From positions 1-7,898 of the forward strand of contig NJBF01000080.1 of assembly GCA_003144275.1 (NCBI GenBank): a DNA stretch of 7,898 bases, in the 5' to 3' direction. Shown piece by piece: positions 1 to 7,898 of this stretch. The notes beneath the pieces are model-generated. The model worked only from the letters and a program-made list of their open reading frames with translations, was not told where the DNA came from and searched no databases. Origin of the DNA: Candidatus Heimdallarchaeota archaeon B3_Heim. Lineage in GTDB: Archaea; Asgardarchaeota; Heimdallarchaeia; Hodarchaeales; Hodarchaeaceae. The first letter of the stretch is position 1. Every line of letters starts with the position of its first letter. The position numbers were made by a program, and so were the translations under genes.

Positions 1-408
1 ACGGTACAGGGCCTTGTTTTGTCATTAAGTTTAGATTTTGACTTTCCCCTAACAGCAGAGATAGACATTCCTCGAACTTATATCGGAAAAACTGGAGATA
101 CGATGAGCTCCGATATTCCCAAATTAGAAGCTGTTTTAATACGCAGAGGAGATGAACTTCTTCCCTCCCATGAACCCATGCGTCCTGATGATAAAATTAT
201 TGTATATTACTACAGTAATTTCGATATGAAACGCACTAATAGAGTCGTAACGGAATTACCTTACAAAAAAAAGAAGAAAAAAGCAAAAAAAAGTAAAATA
301 GTGGATACACACGAAATTAGCGATCTTGAAGGGTCAGATGAAGAGAAAAGTCAATTTGAGGAAAGCAGTTTGAACCAAGCGAATACTGTAGAAAAGGAGG
401 ATTTATGA
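1..408 (+). CDS. 5'-truncated RCK/TrkA-like protein: TrkA_C (RCK-C) domain plus lysine-rich and acidic tail
   Basis: Frame 1 is open from base 1 (TVQGLVLSLS...), so the true start probably lies upstream of the window. EIDIPRTYIGKT...VLIRRGDELLP...MRPDDKIIVY fits the TrkA_C pattern (xVP...VGKT...AIxRGGxxIxP...LxxGDxLxV). The next gene is also RCK-like. Confidence 0.7.
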   Translation, partial: TVQGLVLSLSLDFDFPLTAEIDIPRTYIGKTGDTMSSDIPKLEAVLIRRGDELLPSHEPMRPDDKIIVYYYSNFDMKRTNRVVTELPYKKKKKKAKKSKIVDTHEISDLEGSDEEKSQFEESSLNQANTVEKEDL

Positions 409-1118
409 TGGGTTTTTTTAAGAAAAGAAGAGTCCGTAAGTTCGCTGAGAAAGCTGTGGAACAACAAAGTGATTTTTATGTTTTCGGTAGTAACAATTTT
501 ACAGAGGCCTTTATCGATCAATTATTCCAGATCGGTGCTGAAAGTAAAGTTTCTTTAATTTCTGATATCAAACTAAACTGGATAGAAGAAGTAAAATCGC
601 AGATAAATGTGCTATATGAAGAAAAAACGGAAGAATATGCAAAAAGAAATTTGTACGAAACTCTAGGTTTTCAAAATGCAAAAAAAGTCATTATTCTTCA
701 CGAAGATCCTGTAATAATTCAAAATATAATGTCTTTTGTCACAGGTAGCGATTTACAGGTCATTATATTATCCCAATTCGCTCCACCATTTGTTAAATAT
801 TTATCAGGTCAGAAACCTGGCCAGATACTCATTGTAAATAATATATTTCAAATAGTAAATGAGTTATATGCTAAAATGGACTTACCTCTAAGTAGACCTC
901 CAATCATATCTATCCCCGTTCCTCCAAAATTAATTAACTCCTCTCCAATTCATGTAAATATCCCCAAAGTACGCATTCTACGAATCTTGAGAGAGGAGTA
1001 TAAGAAAAAACTTCTACCAATAGAACTTCCACTCCAAGAAAAAGATCGGCTACTGTTATATTTGGAGGATTCTCAAGAATCTTTGAAAAATCTAGTGGAC
1101 TTTTTAACAAAAAATTGA
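405..1118 (+). CDS. Degenerate RCK/TrkA-like protein (Rossmann TrkA_N-like plus TrkA_C-like domain)
   Basis: FYVFGSNNFTEAFIDQL sits at the beta1-alpha1 position of the Rossmann fold; LYETLGFQNAKKVIILHED resembles the RCK motif LxxAGIxxAxxVIxxxxDD; the C-terminal ISIPVP...RILRILR...LQEKDRLLLYL is TrkA_C-like. ATGA overlap with the upstream stop (405-408) and GGAGG at 396-400; the ATG at 408 is an alternative start. Confidence 0.7.
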   Translation: MMGFFKKRRVRKFAEKAVEQQSDFYVFGSNNFTEAFIDQLFQIGAESKVSLISDIKLNWIEEVKSQINVLYEEKTEEYAKRNLYETLGFQNAKKVIILHEDPVIIQNIMSFVTGSDLQVIILSQFAPPFVKYLSGQKPGQILIVNNIFQIVNELYAKMDLPLSRPPIISIPVPPKLINSSPIHVNIPKVRILRILREEYKKKLLPIELPLQEKDRLLLYLEDSQESLKNLVDFLTKN

Positions 1119-1131
1119 CATTGTACTGTTA

Positions 1132-1761
1132 CTACGAGCGAGGGGTCGCTTGATAGCATATTAACTGTTCACCCTCTATTTTTTTCCTCGCCATTTCCAC
1201 TATATGGAATTGAGTGTACCTCATGATATCGCTGTTGTCATTTAATGATGACGAGAGAAAAAAGGCATATTTAAATTTGAACCTATGAAGTCCATCTAAA
1301 AATTTGGTGACTGGTATAACTCCACTTGGCCCACCCGCCCAAGTTCTAACTATTGGAGAATTAGTTTGAATGTATTCGTCAAAAGATGTTCGTACATATG
1401 GTGGATTAAAATATATGATATCTGGGGAAAAATTTTGAGGATTAAAACAATCAAGATATCTTGCACAGCAGAAATAAGCATTATTATCAGGAATCCATTC
1501 TTTAATATTTTCGATACTCAATGAAACCGCCATTGGAGAAATATCGGTTCCAAAAAATCGTAAATAGGGATATGCCTGATACAAGTATATCAAAATATAT
1601 CCCGTTCCAATCCCTACTTCACAAATTAATCCCGACTGACCCTTCTCGATCTTATATCTAGAGAGAAAATCCGATAAGAATTCTGTAAGGAACCAAGTAT
1701 CCTCACTTGGAGGATATACTTCAGGATTTGATCTTACAGAGAATTTTTCTCGCCATTTCAT
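1132..1761 (-). CDS. hemK: HemK2/Mtq2 (N6AMT1-like) SAM-dependent protein-glutamine methyltransferase, putative aRF1 GGQ methylase
   Basis: VYPPSEDTWFL (Mtq2/HemK2 VYxPxEDSxLL motif), EVGIGTG (motif I), TDISPMAV (motif II), FNPPYV (motif IV) and WAGGPSG. Confidence 0.92.
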   Translation of the reverse strand: MKWREKFSVRSNPEVYPPSEDTWFLTEFLSDFLSRYKIEKGQSGLICEVGIGTGYILIYLYQAYPYLRFFGTDISPMAVSLSIENIKEWIPDNNAYFCCARYLDCFNPQNFSPDIIYFNPPYVRTSFDEYIQTNSPIVRTWAGGPSGVIPVTKFLDGLHRFKFKYAFFLSSSLNDNSDIMRYTQFHIVEMARKKIEGEQLICYQATPRS

Positions 1762-1805: not shown

Positions 1806-4673
1806 TCAAACCATTCCTTTTCCAATTTGATCAAATATTTCTTCAAGAGATCCTCTGACTCTTGAAGAATACAAATCTGATGAGAAACGAAGAAGGTCCA
1901 AATAGAATTTGTTCTGTGCTAATAAGGAAAACCAACTCAGAGTAATTACAGTCTTTTTCAGGGTCCAATCCTTGGTTTCCCAAAAATGCTTCATAGTACT
2001 ATAATCACTTTTGAAACTTGGAACAACAAGTAAAATTCTATAAATGGCGTTATTCTCTGATTTTTCTGTTTCAACAACAATTCGTGTTCCATAAAGGGAT
2101 TTTAATGATTTAACTGCCCTTTCATTTGTAAGATAACCCAATTCAAGTGTTGGTACAGGGATATTATTTTGAATTACTATTTTAACTTCTGGATCGGATT
2201 TAAATACGTTTTTTCCGACAAGTCTCCCAGAAGAACTAAACACATTCGATAAGAGCTCATAAGCATGCGTTTCTAATACTTTAGCATAACTGCGAAAAAT
2301 ATCGGATGACGATGTAACTTCAGCAATCGATTCTTTCAAAAAAGGATAAGTCTTTTTGGTAACAAGAGCGTCTAGAACTTCTGATTGTAAATTATTAGGT
2401 AAAGATCTGTATATTGCATAAAAATAATATCGTCCTACGTTCTTAAATTCAAAGAATGGGTCTTTTTGGAAACTTTGTGTGATAGATTTTTGAATGCTTT
2501 TCATTGACGCAGAGGAGGCCGAAATTAATTTACTATCTTGATTAGCAAGATTTTTTCTGTTTATATTTAAGAAATTACAGGCTTGCATAAACGTTTTTGA
2601 GGCTTCTTTTGACACACCCTTTACTTGCTTTTCTACCAGAGATAATACATTGCTGTAACTTTTTGTTACGGTTGATTCCATTTTTTCAGTAATTTTTCGG
2701 AATTCTTTCTCAGTGTCTTTGATAAATCCTTGGTTCTTCAAAACTTTTTTAAGTTCCTGCTCTTTTAATTTTCCATTTACATATTCTTTTGAAGCATTTT
2801 TCGATTTCTTAAGATTTTCTTGCAGGTCTGTCATTAATTTATCAAATTCAGAAAGATTTTTCGTTATGTCTGAATTAACTTCGGATATGGGCTTTATAGT
2901 AAATTTTAACGAGTGTCGCTTAGCAATCTTGAGTTGGTACCCTTTAGAAATATCCTGCGGTTTTTGAGATAAATATCTTGGAATATTCTTGATCTCATCA
3001 TCGAATTCTGAGCGAAACGCTGTAATCTTCTTTTTAATAAGCTGTCCTTCTTCTGACAAGCTCTTCACATTTGCATCAATCACCGATTGCATCAGCTCAT
3101 CGATTGTAAGCTGATTACTCAAGATTTTTGCTGAAGTAATCTTGTCATCGGGGAATGCAAAAGAAAATGAGACTTTCGACTGGACGCTCTCTAAATAGGA
3201 ATATACTTTGAAAATTCCATGAGATTGGTGAAGGTCACGAGCTAAAAGATCAAGATTTTTATTCAATGTTTCAAGCAGATTATTTGGGTTCTCCTCACTG
3301 AATGCTAATTCTGAGATAACTGCATTTACACCGAAAGCAAGAGAGGAAAAAAGAGCACGATAAAAAGGAAGTACATCACTGGCTTTTTTTACTGTGAAAG
3401 AAAGCGGAGATAATTTGGTTCCGGTCAACTTGAATTTAGTCATCATTTTTTCGATAGTACTGAAATGAGAAGGAGGTATTTCATCTCTCATCTCGGGTAA
3501 TACATCTAAGATATCAATTTTTGTTTCATTACTAATTAATTTGAAAACGATTTGCATATATTTCCATGCAGAAGGAGTTAATCCTGCAGAAAATTCTTCA
3601 CAAAAATATCTTATGTAAGGTATTAGTAATTTAGCAAATATCTCATCTTCTATCATTTTTTCTGCAATTCGTGCTAGTGTGCCCCCAATATCATAATTTT
3701 CGTTTATTCGTGTCGTTAAAAGACTTACTTCGGATTTAAAGGAGGCAATTTCTGGATTTGCTAAAAAATAAAGGGGAAACTCTTTGAGATATTTATGAAA
3801 AATAGCATCTTCAATACGAGATCGAAGGTTTTTCTTAGTAACTTCATGTAAGGAAATATCTTCAAGAAACATTCGAAGATCATTCTCTTCGAATTCACGG
3901 ATCACTTCTTGCAATGCAGTATCAAATTTGAATGCACCTAGGTTTCTTTCAACATACTTCCTTACTTCTTTTAGAAGCGAACTCGATTTAGAATACATTA
4001 CAACTGAGTGAGGATATTCACTTGCCAGAAATTCCATTAATTCATGTGTGAATTTTTCTAGTATATCTTTTCTTTCGGCTTGGATCGTTGGAACAATTTC
4101 ATGAAACTTTCCTTTTAGATTTGAAATTTTAACCAAGGAAGCAGAGTATTCATAACCACTGATGGATTTTTCAAGCGTTTTATCAAGTGATTGACTGAAA
4201 AGATTATCATTATGAGGGATTGATACTTTTTTCCTGGCTTTTTTTATACTACTCAGAAAGAAATCTAAGACATCCGAGATTCCAAATGCAGTAAATTCTT
4301 TCTCTGCACGTTCAACAAGATCAGTTTTAAGGGTCTCCTCAGCAAAGAATGTCACCATTTGCTCATAAAACTCGACAAGAACAGGCGCTACAGTAATATG
4401 CTTACGAGAGATCAATAAAAACTGGCCAACAAGTTCAAAATCAGATCTTTTCACAAGAAATCTCCCAGTTTTATTGTTATGACTACCCCCAACAAAACGG
4501 CTTGTATCTCCACCAATTTCTCCACCCAACATCTGTTGTACAGCTGTTAAACCACCTGTATATACTTGTTCGTCCACAGATTTTAATCCTGGTTGTCCTA
4601 AAGACACCAGGCTTAATCCTGATAGAGAGGCGAGTGAAACCCATGCAACTGGTTGAAAATCTTGGTCTGTCAA
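1806..4673 (-). CDS. 955-aa uncharacterised protein: putative N-terminal longin-like domain and long predicted helical body
   Basis: Uninterrupted 2868-nt ORF. The TTG start has AAGGTG 8 nt upstream. The N-terminus WVSLASLSGLSLV...VDEQVYTGGLTAVQQMLGGEIGG resembles the longin pattern (hhhxxxSGxxL...DxxLxxGxLxAhxxxxxEh). The rest is K/E/L/S-rich with no transmembrane stretch or recognisable catalytic motif. The CDS is secure; the domain call is tentative. Confidence 0.6.
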   Translation of the reverse strand: MTDQDFQPVAWVSLASLSGLSLVSLGQPGLKSVDEQVYTGGLTAVQQMLGGEIGGDTSRFVGGSHNNKTGRFLVKRSDFELVGQFLLISRKHITVAPVLVEFYEQMVTFFAEETLKTDLVERAEKEFTAFGISDVLDFFLSSIKKARKKVSIPHNDNLFSQSLDKTLEKSISGYEYSASLVKISNLKGKFHEIVPTIQAERKDILEKFTHELMEFLASEYPHSVVMYSKSSSLLKEVRKYVERNLGAFKFDTALQEVIREFEENDLRMFLEDISLHEVTKKNLRSRIEDAIFHKYLKEFPLYFLANPEIASFKSEVSLLTTRINENYDIGGTLARIAEKMIEDEIFAKLLIPYIRYFCEEFSAGLTPSAWKYMQIVFKLISNETKIDILDVLPEMRDEIPPSHFSTIEKMMTKFKLTGTKLSPLSFTVKKASDVLPFYRALFSSLAFGVNAVISELAFSEENPNNLLETLNKNLDLLARDLHQSHGIFKVYSYLESVQSKVSFSFAFPDDKITSAKILSNQLTIDELMQSVIDANVKSLSEEGQLIKKKITAFRSEFDDEIKNIPRYLSQKPQDISKGYQLKIAKRHSLKFTIKPISEVNSDITKNLSEFDKLMTDLQENLKKSKNASKEYVNGKLKEQELKKVLKNQGFIKDTEKEFRKITEKMESTVTKSYSNVLSLVEKQVKGVSKEASKTFMQACNFLNINRKNLANQDSKLISASSASMKSIQKSITQSFQKDPFFEFKNVGRYYFYAIYRSLPNNLQSEVLDALVTKKTYPFLKESIAEVTSSSDIFRSYAKVLETHAYELLSNVFSSSGRLVGKNVFKSDPEVKIVIQNNIPVPTLELGYLTNERAVKSLKSLYGTRIVVETEKSENNAIYRILLVVPSFKSDYSTMKHFWETKDWTLKKTVITLSWFSLLAQNKFYLDLLRFSSDLYSSRVRGSLEEIFDQIGKGMV

Positions 4674-4843
4674 AATTGTAACACCTTTAGAGAATCGAGA
4701 AAGTTTTCGAGAAAGACAAAAATTCTCGTACCGAATCCGTTAGCAATATTATAAATATAAATCTCGTACATAATAATTAGGTAGAAAAGGGGATTTATGA
4801 TTATTTTATTCCCTCCCCCATAAAATATCTGGTGTAAAGATAG
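4674..4843. promoter_or_regulatory. Divergent promoter region with a central TATA-like AT core
   Basis: 170-nt gap between head-to-head genes. AATATTATAAATATAAA at 4745-4761. SD-like AAGGTG on the minus strand before the TTG at 4673 and GGTG at 4831-4834 before the ATG at 4844. Confidence 0.6.
4695..4769. repeat. Short direct and inverted repeats built on CGAGA/TCTCG
   Basis: TCGAGAAAG at 4695-4703 and 4707-4715; TCTCGTAC at 4724-4731 and 4762-4769; TTCTCG (4723-4728) is the reverse complement of CGAGAA. Confidence 0.7.
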
Positions 4844-5245
4844 ATGTTTAGAAAGAAATTACGCGAAATGCTACAACTCATGGGCGTAATGGATATCGAT
4901 GACGAAATTCTTGATAATCTACAAAGACAGTTATTTAAATTTCTTGAATTCGATGATTCTCTTGCTGGTGGAATTACTTTTAAGACTGGAAGTATTATCA
5001 CCACCTTACAAATTCAGAATTATCAAGAAATAAAGGAAACCATATCAAAGAAGTATGAGAAGGGAGAAGCACTAGGGAAAATGAATCTACGTCTGACAAT
5101 GTCAAGTTTTTGTTTATACTTAACAGAGGAGAGAAAGTGCCAAATCACGGATGATAGCTGCCCATTTGAAGTTGGTACACGCTGGTGGGAGTGTGAAATT
5201 GTCCAAGCCTCTTGCTTACCAAATGATGAAGAGGAATGGAAATAA
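4844..5245 (+). CDS. 133-aa hypothetical protein: possible histone-fold-like N-terminus and C-terminal five-Cys metal-binding cluster
   Basis: ATG start with upstream GGTG; the ORF fills the space between flanking genes. Cys pattern C90-x8-C99-x6-C106-x10-C117-x6-C124. The histone-fold resemblance was judged by eye only. Confidence 0.65.
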   Translation: MFRKKLREMLQLMGVMDIDDEILDNLQRQLFKFLEFDDSLAGGITFKTGSIITTLQIQNYQEIKETISKKYEKGEALGKMNLRLTMSSFCLYLTEERKCQITDDSCPFEVGTRWWECEIVQASCLPNDEEEWK

Positions 5246-5251
5246 GAGGAT

Positions 5252-5782
5252 CTAATCTCTCTCGGTGGGACGAGGTAGATCATGTACAATTGCCTGTAAT
5301 AGCAAAGACATCCCCGAGTTATTTTGAGGGGACATAGAGTATATTGTTAAATTGTGTTCATTCACTAAATTATTCAAATTCTTGGGAGGTTTTTCTTTTT
5401 CCCCTTTTGATCGATTTCCAACAAGAAGGAATTTCATGGAGGGGGTTGCCTCTTTAATAGTCTCAAAAGCCTGATTTACATAGATGTGGGATTCCTTATC
5501 TGAAAAGTCAAAAACCAATACTACAACTGCTGCATTCTGCAAGAAGTTCTTTATTTGATAATCCAAGCTATTAGATATATCCCAGAATTGGAGATAGTAA
5601 TTGTGTTTCTGATACTCTAATTCTAAATTATAATAGTAAATTCCAAGAGTAGGTACATAATCTGTATCAACATTTGAAGCAACTAGTCTTCGTATAATTG
5701 AGGTTTTCCCAACTCCTTGTTTTCCAAGAAATACTATTTTATAATACGGATGAAATTCATTTACTTGTGTCGGGGAAGACAA
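5252..5782 (-). CDS. Rab/Ras-like small GTPase with degenerate G3, G4 and G5 motifs
   Basis: KIVFLGKQGVGKTS (G1), YVPTLG (G2), LQFWDISN (G3 position), VVVLVFD, LLVGNRSK (G4 position), YSMSPQ (G5 position). TTG start 16 nt after the stop of the upstream gene. No C-terminal Cys prenylation motif. Confidence 0.9.
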   Translation of the reverse strand: MSSPTQVNEFHPYYKIVFLGKQGVGKTSIIRRLVASNVDTDYVPTLGIYYYNLELEYQKHNYYLQFWDISNSLDYQIKNFLQNAAVVVLVFDFSDKESHIYVNQAFETIKEATPSMKFLLVGNRSKGEKEKPPKNLNNLVNEHNLTIYSMSPQNNSGMSLLLQAIVHDLPRPTERD

Positions 5783-5798
5783 AAAAACTCACACGCCT

Positions 5799-6776
5799 TC
5801 AGAGGATTTCCGATTTAAATAAGATTTGACGTTGATCTGATTTTTTCTCCTCAGTCCATAACTTGAAAGGAATAGTTCGTGTTTTTTCTCCCTCTCTAAT
5901 AACAATACCATGATATTTCTTTAAAATTTGCTTTGATACCCACGAAAATCCTTGAGCGACAATATAAATACATGAAATTCCCTTAAATTCTTCTAATGTT
6001 TGATTCAATATTGGGTTTACGATTTTACTTATATCGTCAGCATCGACAGTTTCTTGCATGCAAAAAATCCAAATCATCATGCCTTGATGATCATAAGCGA
6101 TTAGATCAAATGGACCGCTTTCTATTAATGCCCCAGATGGCTGAATAAAAACAATATCTCCAATATTTTCAGAGTAAACAGTGAATCTTAAGGCTAATCC
6201 TCCTTCGATAGAAGGATCGCGTCCAATTATTATTGCATATAGTATTTCAATGAATTTTGGTTGTAAGCTGGCAAGTGTGAGAAGAATTTCTTCTCGTTCT
6301 CCCGATAGGTTAGAAATAATTGTCTCGCTAATCCCGTACTCCCGGGCAAAATTGCTGATAACCTGTGGTGATAACCCTGAAATATGACGGATTTCATCAA
6401 TCAATGAGCGGTGATAAGTACTTACAGATTTAGTATCGTATAACATTGAAAGCGATTTAAGAGACGCTAAATCCTTTTTGGGAATAAATTTTTGTTTATA
6501 AGAGAGACGACTAGAGTGTGATTGATTCTTCAAGAAGAAACGAGCTTGAAGCATACTAATTTCTTCAAGAGATTTTGTCAGTAGAGGAGTATTGCAATCT
6601 ACACAAGAATAGGAAACGCTACTAGCGGTGGAGAAGTGTTGAATTACTCCTACATCACAGAAGAAAGCTTTCCTGCAGGTAGGGCAATAATTAGCTTCGA
6701 ATTGATCTGAAATATCACGACTTGGCCCCCCTTCAAAGACACATGGACGACAATCACTATCACAATGAATCTTCAT
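5799..6776 (-). CDS. 325-aa protein: N-terminal Cys8/His zinc-binding domain and C-terminal PD-(D/E)xK (Mrr-like) fold lacking catalytic residues
   Basis: C5, C9, C12, C31xxC34, C40, H47, C58xxC61. The C-terminal FDLIAYD...IWIFCM...VDADDISKI...IYIVAQGFSWVSKQIL follows the Mrr_cat layout. ATG start with AGGTG 9 nt upstream. Confidence 0.65.
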   Translation of the reverse strand: MKIHCDSDCRPCVFEGGPSRDISDQFEANYCPTCRKAFFCDVGVIQHFSTASSVSYSCVDCNTPLLTKSLEEISMLQARFFLKNQSHSSRLSYKQKFIPKKDLASLKSLSMLYDTKSVSTYHRSLIDEIRHISGLSPQVISNFAREYGISETIISNLSGEREEILLTLASLQPKFIEILYAIIIGRDPSIEGGLALRFTVYSENIGDIVFIQPSGALIESGPFDLIAYDHQGMMIWIFCMQETVDADDISKIVNPILNQTLEEFKGISCIYIVAQGFSWVSKQILKKYHGIVIREGEKTRTIPFKLWTEEKKSDQRQILFKSEIL

Positions 6777-7505: not shown

Positions 7506-7602
7506 ACAAGAAAAAAACATTCATTTTCGTCGTATTCGTCACTTTCACCGCTCTCTCTCTGTTTCAAGCTTATAAGAGGGAAAATACTAGAAAGAGGTGG
7601 GA

Positions 7603-7898
7603 ATGCGCACCAAGAAACACCCTCAACCGCAGTTAGCGATCCGAATGCAGCTGAAACCGCGGCCAATATTTACTGATTTGTACACCTGCGCGAAAAACCT
7701 CTATAATCGCGCCACCTATGAGGTTCGCCAAGAATTCTTCAGGGCAGGAAAATGGCTCCAGTATACGGCGCTATATCATCGGCTCAAGCACGAACCAGTC
7801 TATCTCGCATTAAAAACCATCTCGGATAGCTATTTACCTCAACAAGTCTTGCGACAGATAGAACAGGTCTGGCGGGGTTTTTTTAATGCCTTGAAAGC
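7603..7898 (+). CDS. tnpB: TnpB (IS200/IS605/IS607 OrfB) RNA-guided endonuclease family, N-terminal part, 3'-truncated by the window edge
   Basis: Not in the ORF track. My translation from ATG 7603: MRTKKHPQPQLAIRMQLKPRPIFTDLYTCAKNLYNRATYEVRQEFFRAGKWLQYTALYHRLKHEPVYLALKTISDSYLPQQVLRQIEQVWRGFFNALK. KNLYN..Y..RQ.FF, LY..LK....Y..L and QQVL......W..FF are typical of the TnpB N-terminus. GAGGTG at 7594-7599; alternative in-frame starts are GTG 7597 and ATG 7645. Confidence 0.88.
   Translation, partial: MRTKKHPQPQLAIRMQLKPRPIFTDLYTCAKNLYNRATYEVRQEFFRAGKWLQYTALYHRLKHEPVYLALKTISDSYLPQQVLRQIEQVWRGFFNALK

Follow-up and report, generated by a model that had tools for sequence, protein, structure and literature searches.

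A degenerate Rab-like GTPase and the Hodarchaeales-only protein p325 as a probable pair among neighbouring gene units in an Asgard archaeal locus

The contig NJBF01000080.1 from Candidatus Heimdallarchaeota archaeon B3_Heim (genome of 3.95 Mb, 94% complete) was analysed over its entire length of 7898 bases, hereafter the window, and carries four adjacent genes whose products are referred to under the working names BIG955 (955 amino acids, aa), p133 (133 aa), GTPase (176 aa) and p325 (325 aa). The source names of near-identical proteins assign the genome to Hodarchaeales within the Asgard group Heimdallarchaeia. The analysis indicates, with moderate confidence, that the p325–GTPase operon is a functional unit, whose two products may also pair physically; its GTPase is a Rab-like protein with degenerate nucleotide motifs. 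A preliminary description of the locus had suggested that all four proteins form a single complex; on balance, we lean towards neighbouring units, namely the p325–GTPase pair, p133, and BIG955 with a methyltransferase, rather than one four-protein machine.

All four open reading frames (ORFs) are real genes, because they are conserved across the 21 genomes of the genus that served as the comparison set and evolve under strong purifying selection, with ratios of nonsynonymous to synonymous substitution rates (dN/dS) of 0.02-0.11 at a dS of ~1-2 within the window's subclade. The four adjacent genes and the two TTG starts noted in the preliminary description were confirmed, and the TTG starts of BIG955 and GTPase align with a codon at which many orthologues carry ATG. 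Three transcription units were assigned: p325–GTPase on the minus strand, p133 on the plus strand and BIG955–methyltransferase on the minus strand. The three transcription directions reported earlier need correction, as there are three units but only two strands. The stop of p325 (5799..6776, minus strand) lies 16 nt from the start of the GTPase gene (5252..5782, minus strand, TTG start); GTPase and p133 (4844..5245, plus strand) are convergent, with 6 nt separating their stops; and the starts of p133 and BIG955 (1806..4673, minus strand, TTG start) are divergent and 170 nt apart, across an AT-rich intergenic region (4674..4843) that may serve as a promoter region. BIG955 is followed on the same strand, after 44 nt, by a HemK/Mtq2-like methyltransferase gene (1132..1761, minus strand) with an NPPY motif, which lies beyond the part of the window covered by the preliminary description. 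Among the four proteins, the GTPase was the only one that matched a Pfam or NCBIfam family.

The p325–GTPase pair was found in 21/21 genus genomes, on the same strand and with a gap of 16-17 nt, and the 16-nt same-strand gap persists down to a GTPase identity of 33-40%. Small GTPases are also the neighbours of further members of the p325 family. In 4/4 genomes, a canonical Ras-family GTPase gene lies next to the C70-type paralogue, downstream of it and on the same strand. A 315-aa Arf-like GTPase is encoded ahead of the C11-type paralogue in 4/7 genomes, and a p325 relative of 29% identity has a 196-aa GTPase as its divergent neighbour. As about 50 of the 3405 ORFs in the genome (~1.5%) encode GTPases, the chance of a GTPase neighbour is ~3% per gene. 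A complex prediction of p325 with GTPase returned a score of 0.00 and gave no verdict, and it is not used as evidence either way.

The GTPase matched the Ras profile PF00071 with 70.1 bits against a cut-off of 21.6, and its top PDB sequence matches were Ypt6/Rab6 and also Rab1 (E 4e-15 to 1e-10). Its G1 P-loop, GKQGVGKT, is intact (aa 20-27, 5702..5725), and T45 aligns with the switch-I Thr of Rab proteins (G2), which is thus kept. At the other motifs the protein departs from the Rab pattern: alignment to Ypt6 and Rab6 places DISNS at the G3 position in place of DxxGQ (aa 68-72, 5567..5581) and NRSK at the G4 position in place of NKxD (aa 123-126, 5405..5416), and SPQ is found at the G5 position in place of SAK (aa 151-153, 5324..5332), all on the minus strand. 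In context, WDISNS thus stands for WDTAGQ and GNRSK for GNKxD. The degenerate GTPase of the preliminary description is therefore borne out, with the Ras profile match, the retained P-loop and the altered G3, G4 and G5. Furthermore, among the ~50 small-GTPase-like ORFs in the genome, it is the only one that has a P-loop and lacks both DxxG and NKxD.

Comparison of the orthologues indicated how this state arose. Most other genus members carry DVSGN and NK[AFSY]E, often together with SAK (SAK, SAR or SAT in several members), and DISNS is limited to the window GTPase and its three nearest relatives; three of these four proteins carry NRSK and one carries NKSK. The loss of motifs was thus stepwise: the catalytic Gln and the canonical Asp were already missing orthogroup-wide, and the subclade of the window is further eroded. 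The motif loss is real and recent, and the gene remains under purifying selection (dN/dS 0.07-0.11). The protein contains no Cys, ends in ...PRPTERD and carries no lipidation or prenylation motif; it is no Rab orthologue. The G protein of the subclade thus keeps the P-loop and the switch-I Thr and has lost the switch-II Gly/Gln, the guanine-specifying Asp and SAK, and because of these losses the window GTPase has probably ceased to act as a cycling GTP switch. In that case it would be a permanently 'on' or a nucleotide-independent subunit, that is, a pseudoGTPase, for which some nucleotide binding is possible because the P-loop is still perfect.

The operon partner p325 belongs to a small family confined to Hodarchaeales. 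A search at E<=1e-10 among 1.84 billion representatives yielded ~28 clusters, all resembling Hodarchaeales sequences; eukaryotic C2H2 zinc-finger proteins that an exhaustive profile search returned beyond the family were judged to be Cys-composition noise. Orthologues show 49-96% identity, with a dN/dS of 0.04-0.06. The N-terminal region is rich in Cys (aa 5-61, 6594..6764, minus strand), with eight Cys residues (C5, C9, C12, C31, C34, C40, C58 and C61). Across orthologues and paralogues, seven of these never vary and one is nearly invariant, which would suffice for two predicted zinc sites. The C-terminal alpha/beta domain (aa ~190-320, 5817..6209, minus strand) probably has a PD-(D/E)xK (Mrr-like) fold without the catalytic motif. 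In the ESM Atlas, p325 features scored 0.87 (below 0.9) to Mrr_cat clusters, and structure comparison gave a TM of 0.33-0.55 over residues 121-320 with a mediocre model (pLDDT 0.64). No Pfam match supported the Mrr_cat similarity at E<=1, the hhalign probability was 1% with shallow alignments, and a PDB sequence search with the p325 profile gave nothing below E 0.1. D224 is nearly invariant. The (E/Q)xK site varies within the family: p325 has M-Q-E there, and Q-E-K is found in the C70-type paralogue only. The preliminary description had proposed a zinc finger joined to a dead nuclease, which is plausible and partly supported: the conserved Cys residues and the missing (E/Q)xK agree with it, and for the Mrr-like fold only the ESM Atlas hints were obtained, with no support from Pfam or hhalign.

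At the C11-type loci, a row consisting of a 4Fe-4S ferredoxin-domain protein (233-235 aa), the 315-aa Arf-like GTPase and the C11-type p325 paralogue was observed (L053:7704-9496, L054:7747-9530 and L057:7807-9612), and this row is conserved in four genus genomes. The Arf-like GTPase has a C-terminal extension that may be a roadblock tail of the Rag-like kind. At the C11-type locus of the window's own genome, its place is taken by a metallo-beta-lactamase-fold gene.

The single complex proposed earlier would have the longin head of BIG955 hold the GTPase, as in TRAPP, Mon1-Ccz1 and DENN, with p325 and p133 as accessory scaffold subunits. We consider such an assembly unlikely. It agrees with the gene order, as the four genes keep their order in every genus genome; however, all nine genes of the window are collinear across the genus, and the flanking PCC gene, the methyltransferase gene, the 237-aa gene and the gene preceding the latter are equally syntenic, so that order at the genus level says little about linkage among the four. 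The division of the four genes over three transcription units also argues against it. Within the genus, 100-N joins or masked stretches were seen inside the locus in two single-contig genomes (L017: G015; L029-L030: G015, G006), and a distance of ~0.8 Mb separates p325 from the other genes of the locus in G015; such irregularities are probably scaffolding artefacts rather than rearrangements.

Beyond the genus, the four-gene arrangement dissolves. A metagenomic contig of a sister lineage (L099:8992-13101) carries p325, p133, the methyltransferase gene, the 237-aa gene and the next gene in the orientations of the window, with identities to the window of 42% for p325, 52% for p133 and 63% for the 237-aa protein. 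The p325–p133 gap measures 45 nt there and the p133–methyltransferase gap 143 nt. Neither GTPase nor BIG955 was found on this 17.5 kb contig, and p325 and p133 therefore stay adjacent there without the other two members of the proposed complex. In the sister family, the neighbours of p133 are the methyltransferase and Nop5-fibrillarin genes in one genus and unrelated genes in another, and p325, BIG955 and an adjacent GTPase are absent at the p133 loci of both genera, which again speaks against a four-protein complex; a 355-aa and a 401-aa gene near the sister-family p133 proved to be no relatives of p325 or BIG955. The four genes are not an old module, because the sister-lineage locus lacks GTPase and BIG955. 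From the sister-lineage and sister-family loci, the backbone of the locus is p133 with the methyltransferase gene, which p325 joined later; p133 rather than BIG955 is thus the older neighbour of the methyltransferase. GTPase and BIG955 are at this locus only in the genus, having been either inserted there or lost from the sister lineage. The preliminary description had named missing synteny in related genomes as speaking against its proposal: synteny was found in the genus genomes, and beyond them the co-location of the four genes was gone, which is the refuting outcome.

The methyltransferase is the best match in the genome to TIGR00537 (archaeal HemK-related Mtq2), with 54 bits, below the 87-bit cut-off. 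It lies beside p133 in two outgroup lineages, and because the two are neighbours in three lineages altogether, a link between p133 and the methyltransferase is suggested. In the sister family (L059:4861-7899, G023), the methyltransferase gene precedes genes for a DRG-type GTPase (MMR_HSR1, TGS) and for two proteins of 169 and 433 aa without a family match. Judged by eye, the N-termini of these two proteins resemble roadblock or longin domains.

The acidic protein p133 belongs to a family found across the order Hodarchaeales. Its four Cys residues, arranged as C90-x8-C99-x6-C106-x10-C117 (5111..5194, plus strand), are invariant in 36 sequences, including relatives of 33-38% identity, and the cluster is a probable zinc site. 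The AlphaFold (AF2) model of p133 (pLDDT 71.9) has the topology a-a-b-b-a-b..a; it found no match in four structure libraries, a PDB sequence search with the p133 profile gave nothing below E 0.1, and the ESM Atlas holds no model of this protein. The preliminary description had called p133 histone-fold-like, and this call failed: the model contains strands and not the three helices a1-L1-long a2-L2-a3, PF00808 identified 10 histone genes in the genome with p133 not among them, and hhalign against these histones gave a probability of 0.5% with shallow alignments. The loss of this element also weighs against the four-protein complex. Two other identities were rejected. As a TRAPPC3/V4R-like zinc protein, an idea prompted by PMC10933270, p133 had no structural match, and as a Trm112-like methyltransferase partner it had no match to PF03966, with a canonical Trm112 encoded elsewhere in the genome on another contig. 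On a soil metagenome contig (L091:3562-6421), a p133 relative of 33% identity lies between ubiquitin E2 (UQ_con) and E1 (ThiF) genes; this single locus hints at a link of p133-type Cys4 proteins to the Asgard ubiquitin system.

BIG955, a soluble protein, was modelled with AF2 from 17 orthologues (pLDDT 84.4, pTM 0.67); its ESM Atlas model was poor. The AF2 model begins with a b-b-a-b-b-(b)-a domain (residues 9-115), continues through helical bundles that span ~700 residues and closes with an alpha/beta domain (aa 829-954, 1812..2189, minus strand), modelled as b-b-a-b-b-a followed by three helices, which is a possible second longin-like domain. Using a structural aligner that reports ranges, residues 7-150 (4224..4655, minus strand) matched longin domains, with longin proteins making up ~30/50 rows, TRAPP longin subunits among the top matches, and AP sigma, SRX, VAMP7, Fuzzy, Bet5, Nprl and Mon1-Ccz1 as weaker ones. 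The b-b-a-b-b-b-a fold of this head matches that of solved longin domains. Sequence profiles gave no such support: BIG955 had no Pfam match, PF03259 had no match to the window, and hhalign of the head against the genome's own roadblock proteins gave a probability of 0.4% with shallow alignments. The longin fold proposed earlier for the N-terminus of BIG955 is therefore upheld by structural matches, without a sequence profile behind it.

The longin head is also the most conserved part of BIG955, with 60/118 positions invariant against 4-18% elsewhere. Helix a1 and the Gly-rich loop of the head (aa 29-66, 4476..4589, minus strand) are invariant at 27/38 positions (71%) and modelled with a pLDDT <50; strong conservation combined with low model confidence fits a binding surface or loop. 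Whole-model searches with Foldseek and the Atlas returned no significant whole-chain match, only weak Munc13 and Vps8 rows, and residues 528-686 matched generic four-helix bundles only. All BIG955 homologues are full length, share >=41% identity and were found in the genus-level clade only, and a profile search of five outgroup genomes found none.

The longin fold, the TRAPP subunits among its top matches and the strong conservation of the head are further points in favour of a complex of all four proteins, as is the shared distribution of GTPase and BIG955, neither of which occurs outside the genus or at the sister-lineage locus. This last observation bears equally on a narrower proposal, that GTPase and BIG955 were gained together at the locus and that BIG955 would be the longin platform, a GEF- or GAP-like holder, of the GTPase, with p325 as effector. 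We rate this proposal slightly below the complete complex, and thus also as improbable.

Several observations weigh against reading the locus as neighbouring units centred on a p325–GTPase pair. No GTPase neighbour was found for two sister-family p325 homologues, nor for two divergent relatives of the window-type p325 outside the genus, and the GTPase neighbour is missing at 3/7 C11-type loci. The genomes compared are kin, and the neighbour counts therefore overstate their independence. The fold assigned to p325 comes from an ESM model with a pLDDT of 0.64 and a language-model score <0.9. Finally, as GTPase and BIG955 occur and are missing together, those two could belong together. Some of these points would favour an adjacency devoid of functional meaning, in which the gene order was simply inherited in a young clade and p325 and GTPase act separately. 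The collinearity of the nine-gene window and the window-type relatives without a GTPase neighbour agree with this explanation, and a published study of the cultured Asgard strain MK-D1 reports that operons joining small GTPase genes to their regulators are generally absent (PMC10933270). However, the 16-nt same-strand gap kept at such low GTPase identity argues against it, as does a small GTPase as immediate neighbour in three further p325-family lineages against the low chance expectation, and we give it little credence, about as much as the joint gain of GTPase and BIG955. A nuclease–NTPase system for conflict or defence, in which p325 would be the effector nuclease and the G protein would sense or switch, is highly improbable: the restriction-endonuclease-like signal in p325, a nearby TnpB gene and the D...QEK pattern retained in the C70-type paralogue speak for it, but PADLOC gave no match for any of the proteins, the p325 domain lacks (E/Q)xK and is acidic (pI 5.2), and the gene is under strong purifying selection and present once, at a constant place, in every genus genome, which does not resemble a variable defence island.

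Under the reading of neighbouring units, which we prefer, three units would lie side by side. In the first, p325 would combine two predicted zinc sites and a helical linker with a nuclease-like fold devoid of its catalytic motif; it would be co-produced with the Rab-like G protein and may act as adaptor, effector or regulator of its paired G protein. The second would be p133, an older Cys4 protein that has the methyltransferase as its steady neighbour. The third would comprise BIG955, a very large helical protein that is restricted to the genus and whose longin head is highly conserved, followed by the methyltransferase.

Two other parts of the window flank these genes. At 7597-7896 (plus strand) lies the N-terminal part of a gene for a TnpB-family RNA-guided endonuclease (NCBIfam guided_TnpB, E 2e-5); because the window is the whole contig and this gene runs off its end, a repeated IS element is the probable site at which the assembly broke. 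At the other end (1-1118, plus strand), the 237-aa protein and the product of the preceding gene share a homologous domain. A tblastn search found a second match of ~31% identity directly upstream in every genome, and the corresponding upstream gene of the sister lineage encodes 416 aa. The two proteins had no significant family match, with a weak TrkA_C hint.

Asgard archaea encode dozens of small GTPases, of which almost none has been matched to a partner. One protein family beside four different small GTPases in Hodarchaeales offers concrete, clonable GTPase–partner pairs, among which the pair with a canonical GTPase and the pair with a degenerate GTPase form a natural comparison. BIG955 adds a longin head on a new architecture, and the sister-lineage locus is useful for dating the insertions or losses of GTPase and BIG955. 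The value of the locus is that of a testable lead and not of a demonstrated eukaryote-like machine. No published description of the p325–GTPase pairing or of Asgard pseudoGTPases was found in the literature searched.

Small GTPases of Asgard archaea whose roadblock/longin regulators are fused to them or co-encoded have been described (Tran et al. 2024, PMC10933270), and the locus resembles these systems in that a Ras-superfamily G protein lies near a longin/roadblock-type platform domain. It differs from them in that the longin domain is the N-terminal part of a helical protein of 955 aa encoded in a separate transcription unit, the operon partner is the predicted zinc-binding, nuclease-fold p325 and not a roadblock/longin protein, and G3, G4 and G5 are lost in the window's subclade. 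The absence of the catalytic Gln from the GTPase orthogroup is shared with MglA of the bacterial MglA-MglB system. Like Rab6/Ypt6 and Rab1/Ypt1, the window GTPase has the P-loop and the switch-I Thr and agrees with the Ras fold in overall length, whereas WDISNS, GNRSK, SPQ and the lack of a C-terminal prenylation Cys set it apart.

The longin domains of TRAPP (synbindin/TRAPPC4, sedlin/TRAPPC2 and Bet5), Sec22b, AP sigma, Fuzzy and Mon1-Ccz1 are the closest structural comparison for BIG955, whose head differs in having no sequence-profile match and in being fused to ~800 residues of novel architecture; unlike in TRAPP, no Bet3-type partner was found. With Mrr-type restriction endonucleases (Mrr_cat, PF04471), p325 shares an N-terminal accessory region followed by a C-terminal alpha/beta domain with a conserved Asp, and its 'IVAQ.FSW.AKQ' stretch resembles the Mrr C-terminal motif. 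It differs from them in M-Q-E for (E/Q)xK, the acidic domain and the lack of Pfam or hhalign support, and its family pairs with small GTPases rather than methyltransferases.

Eukaryotic pseudoGTPases, such as CENP-M and the G domain of AAGAB, keep the G fold, have lost the nucleotide-specificity and hydrolysis motifs and are presumed to act in scaffolding. The window GTPase differs from them in its perfect P-loop, and it resembles them in that its G-domain fold remains under selection while the nucleotide-specificity and hydrolysis motifs are gone.

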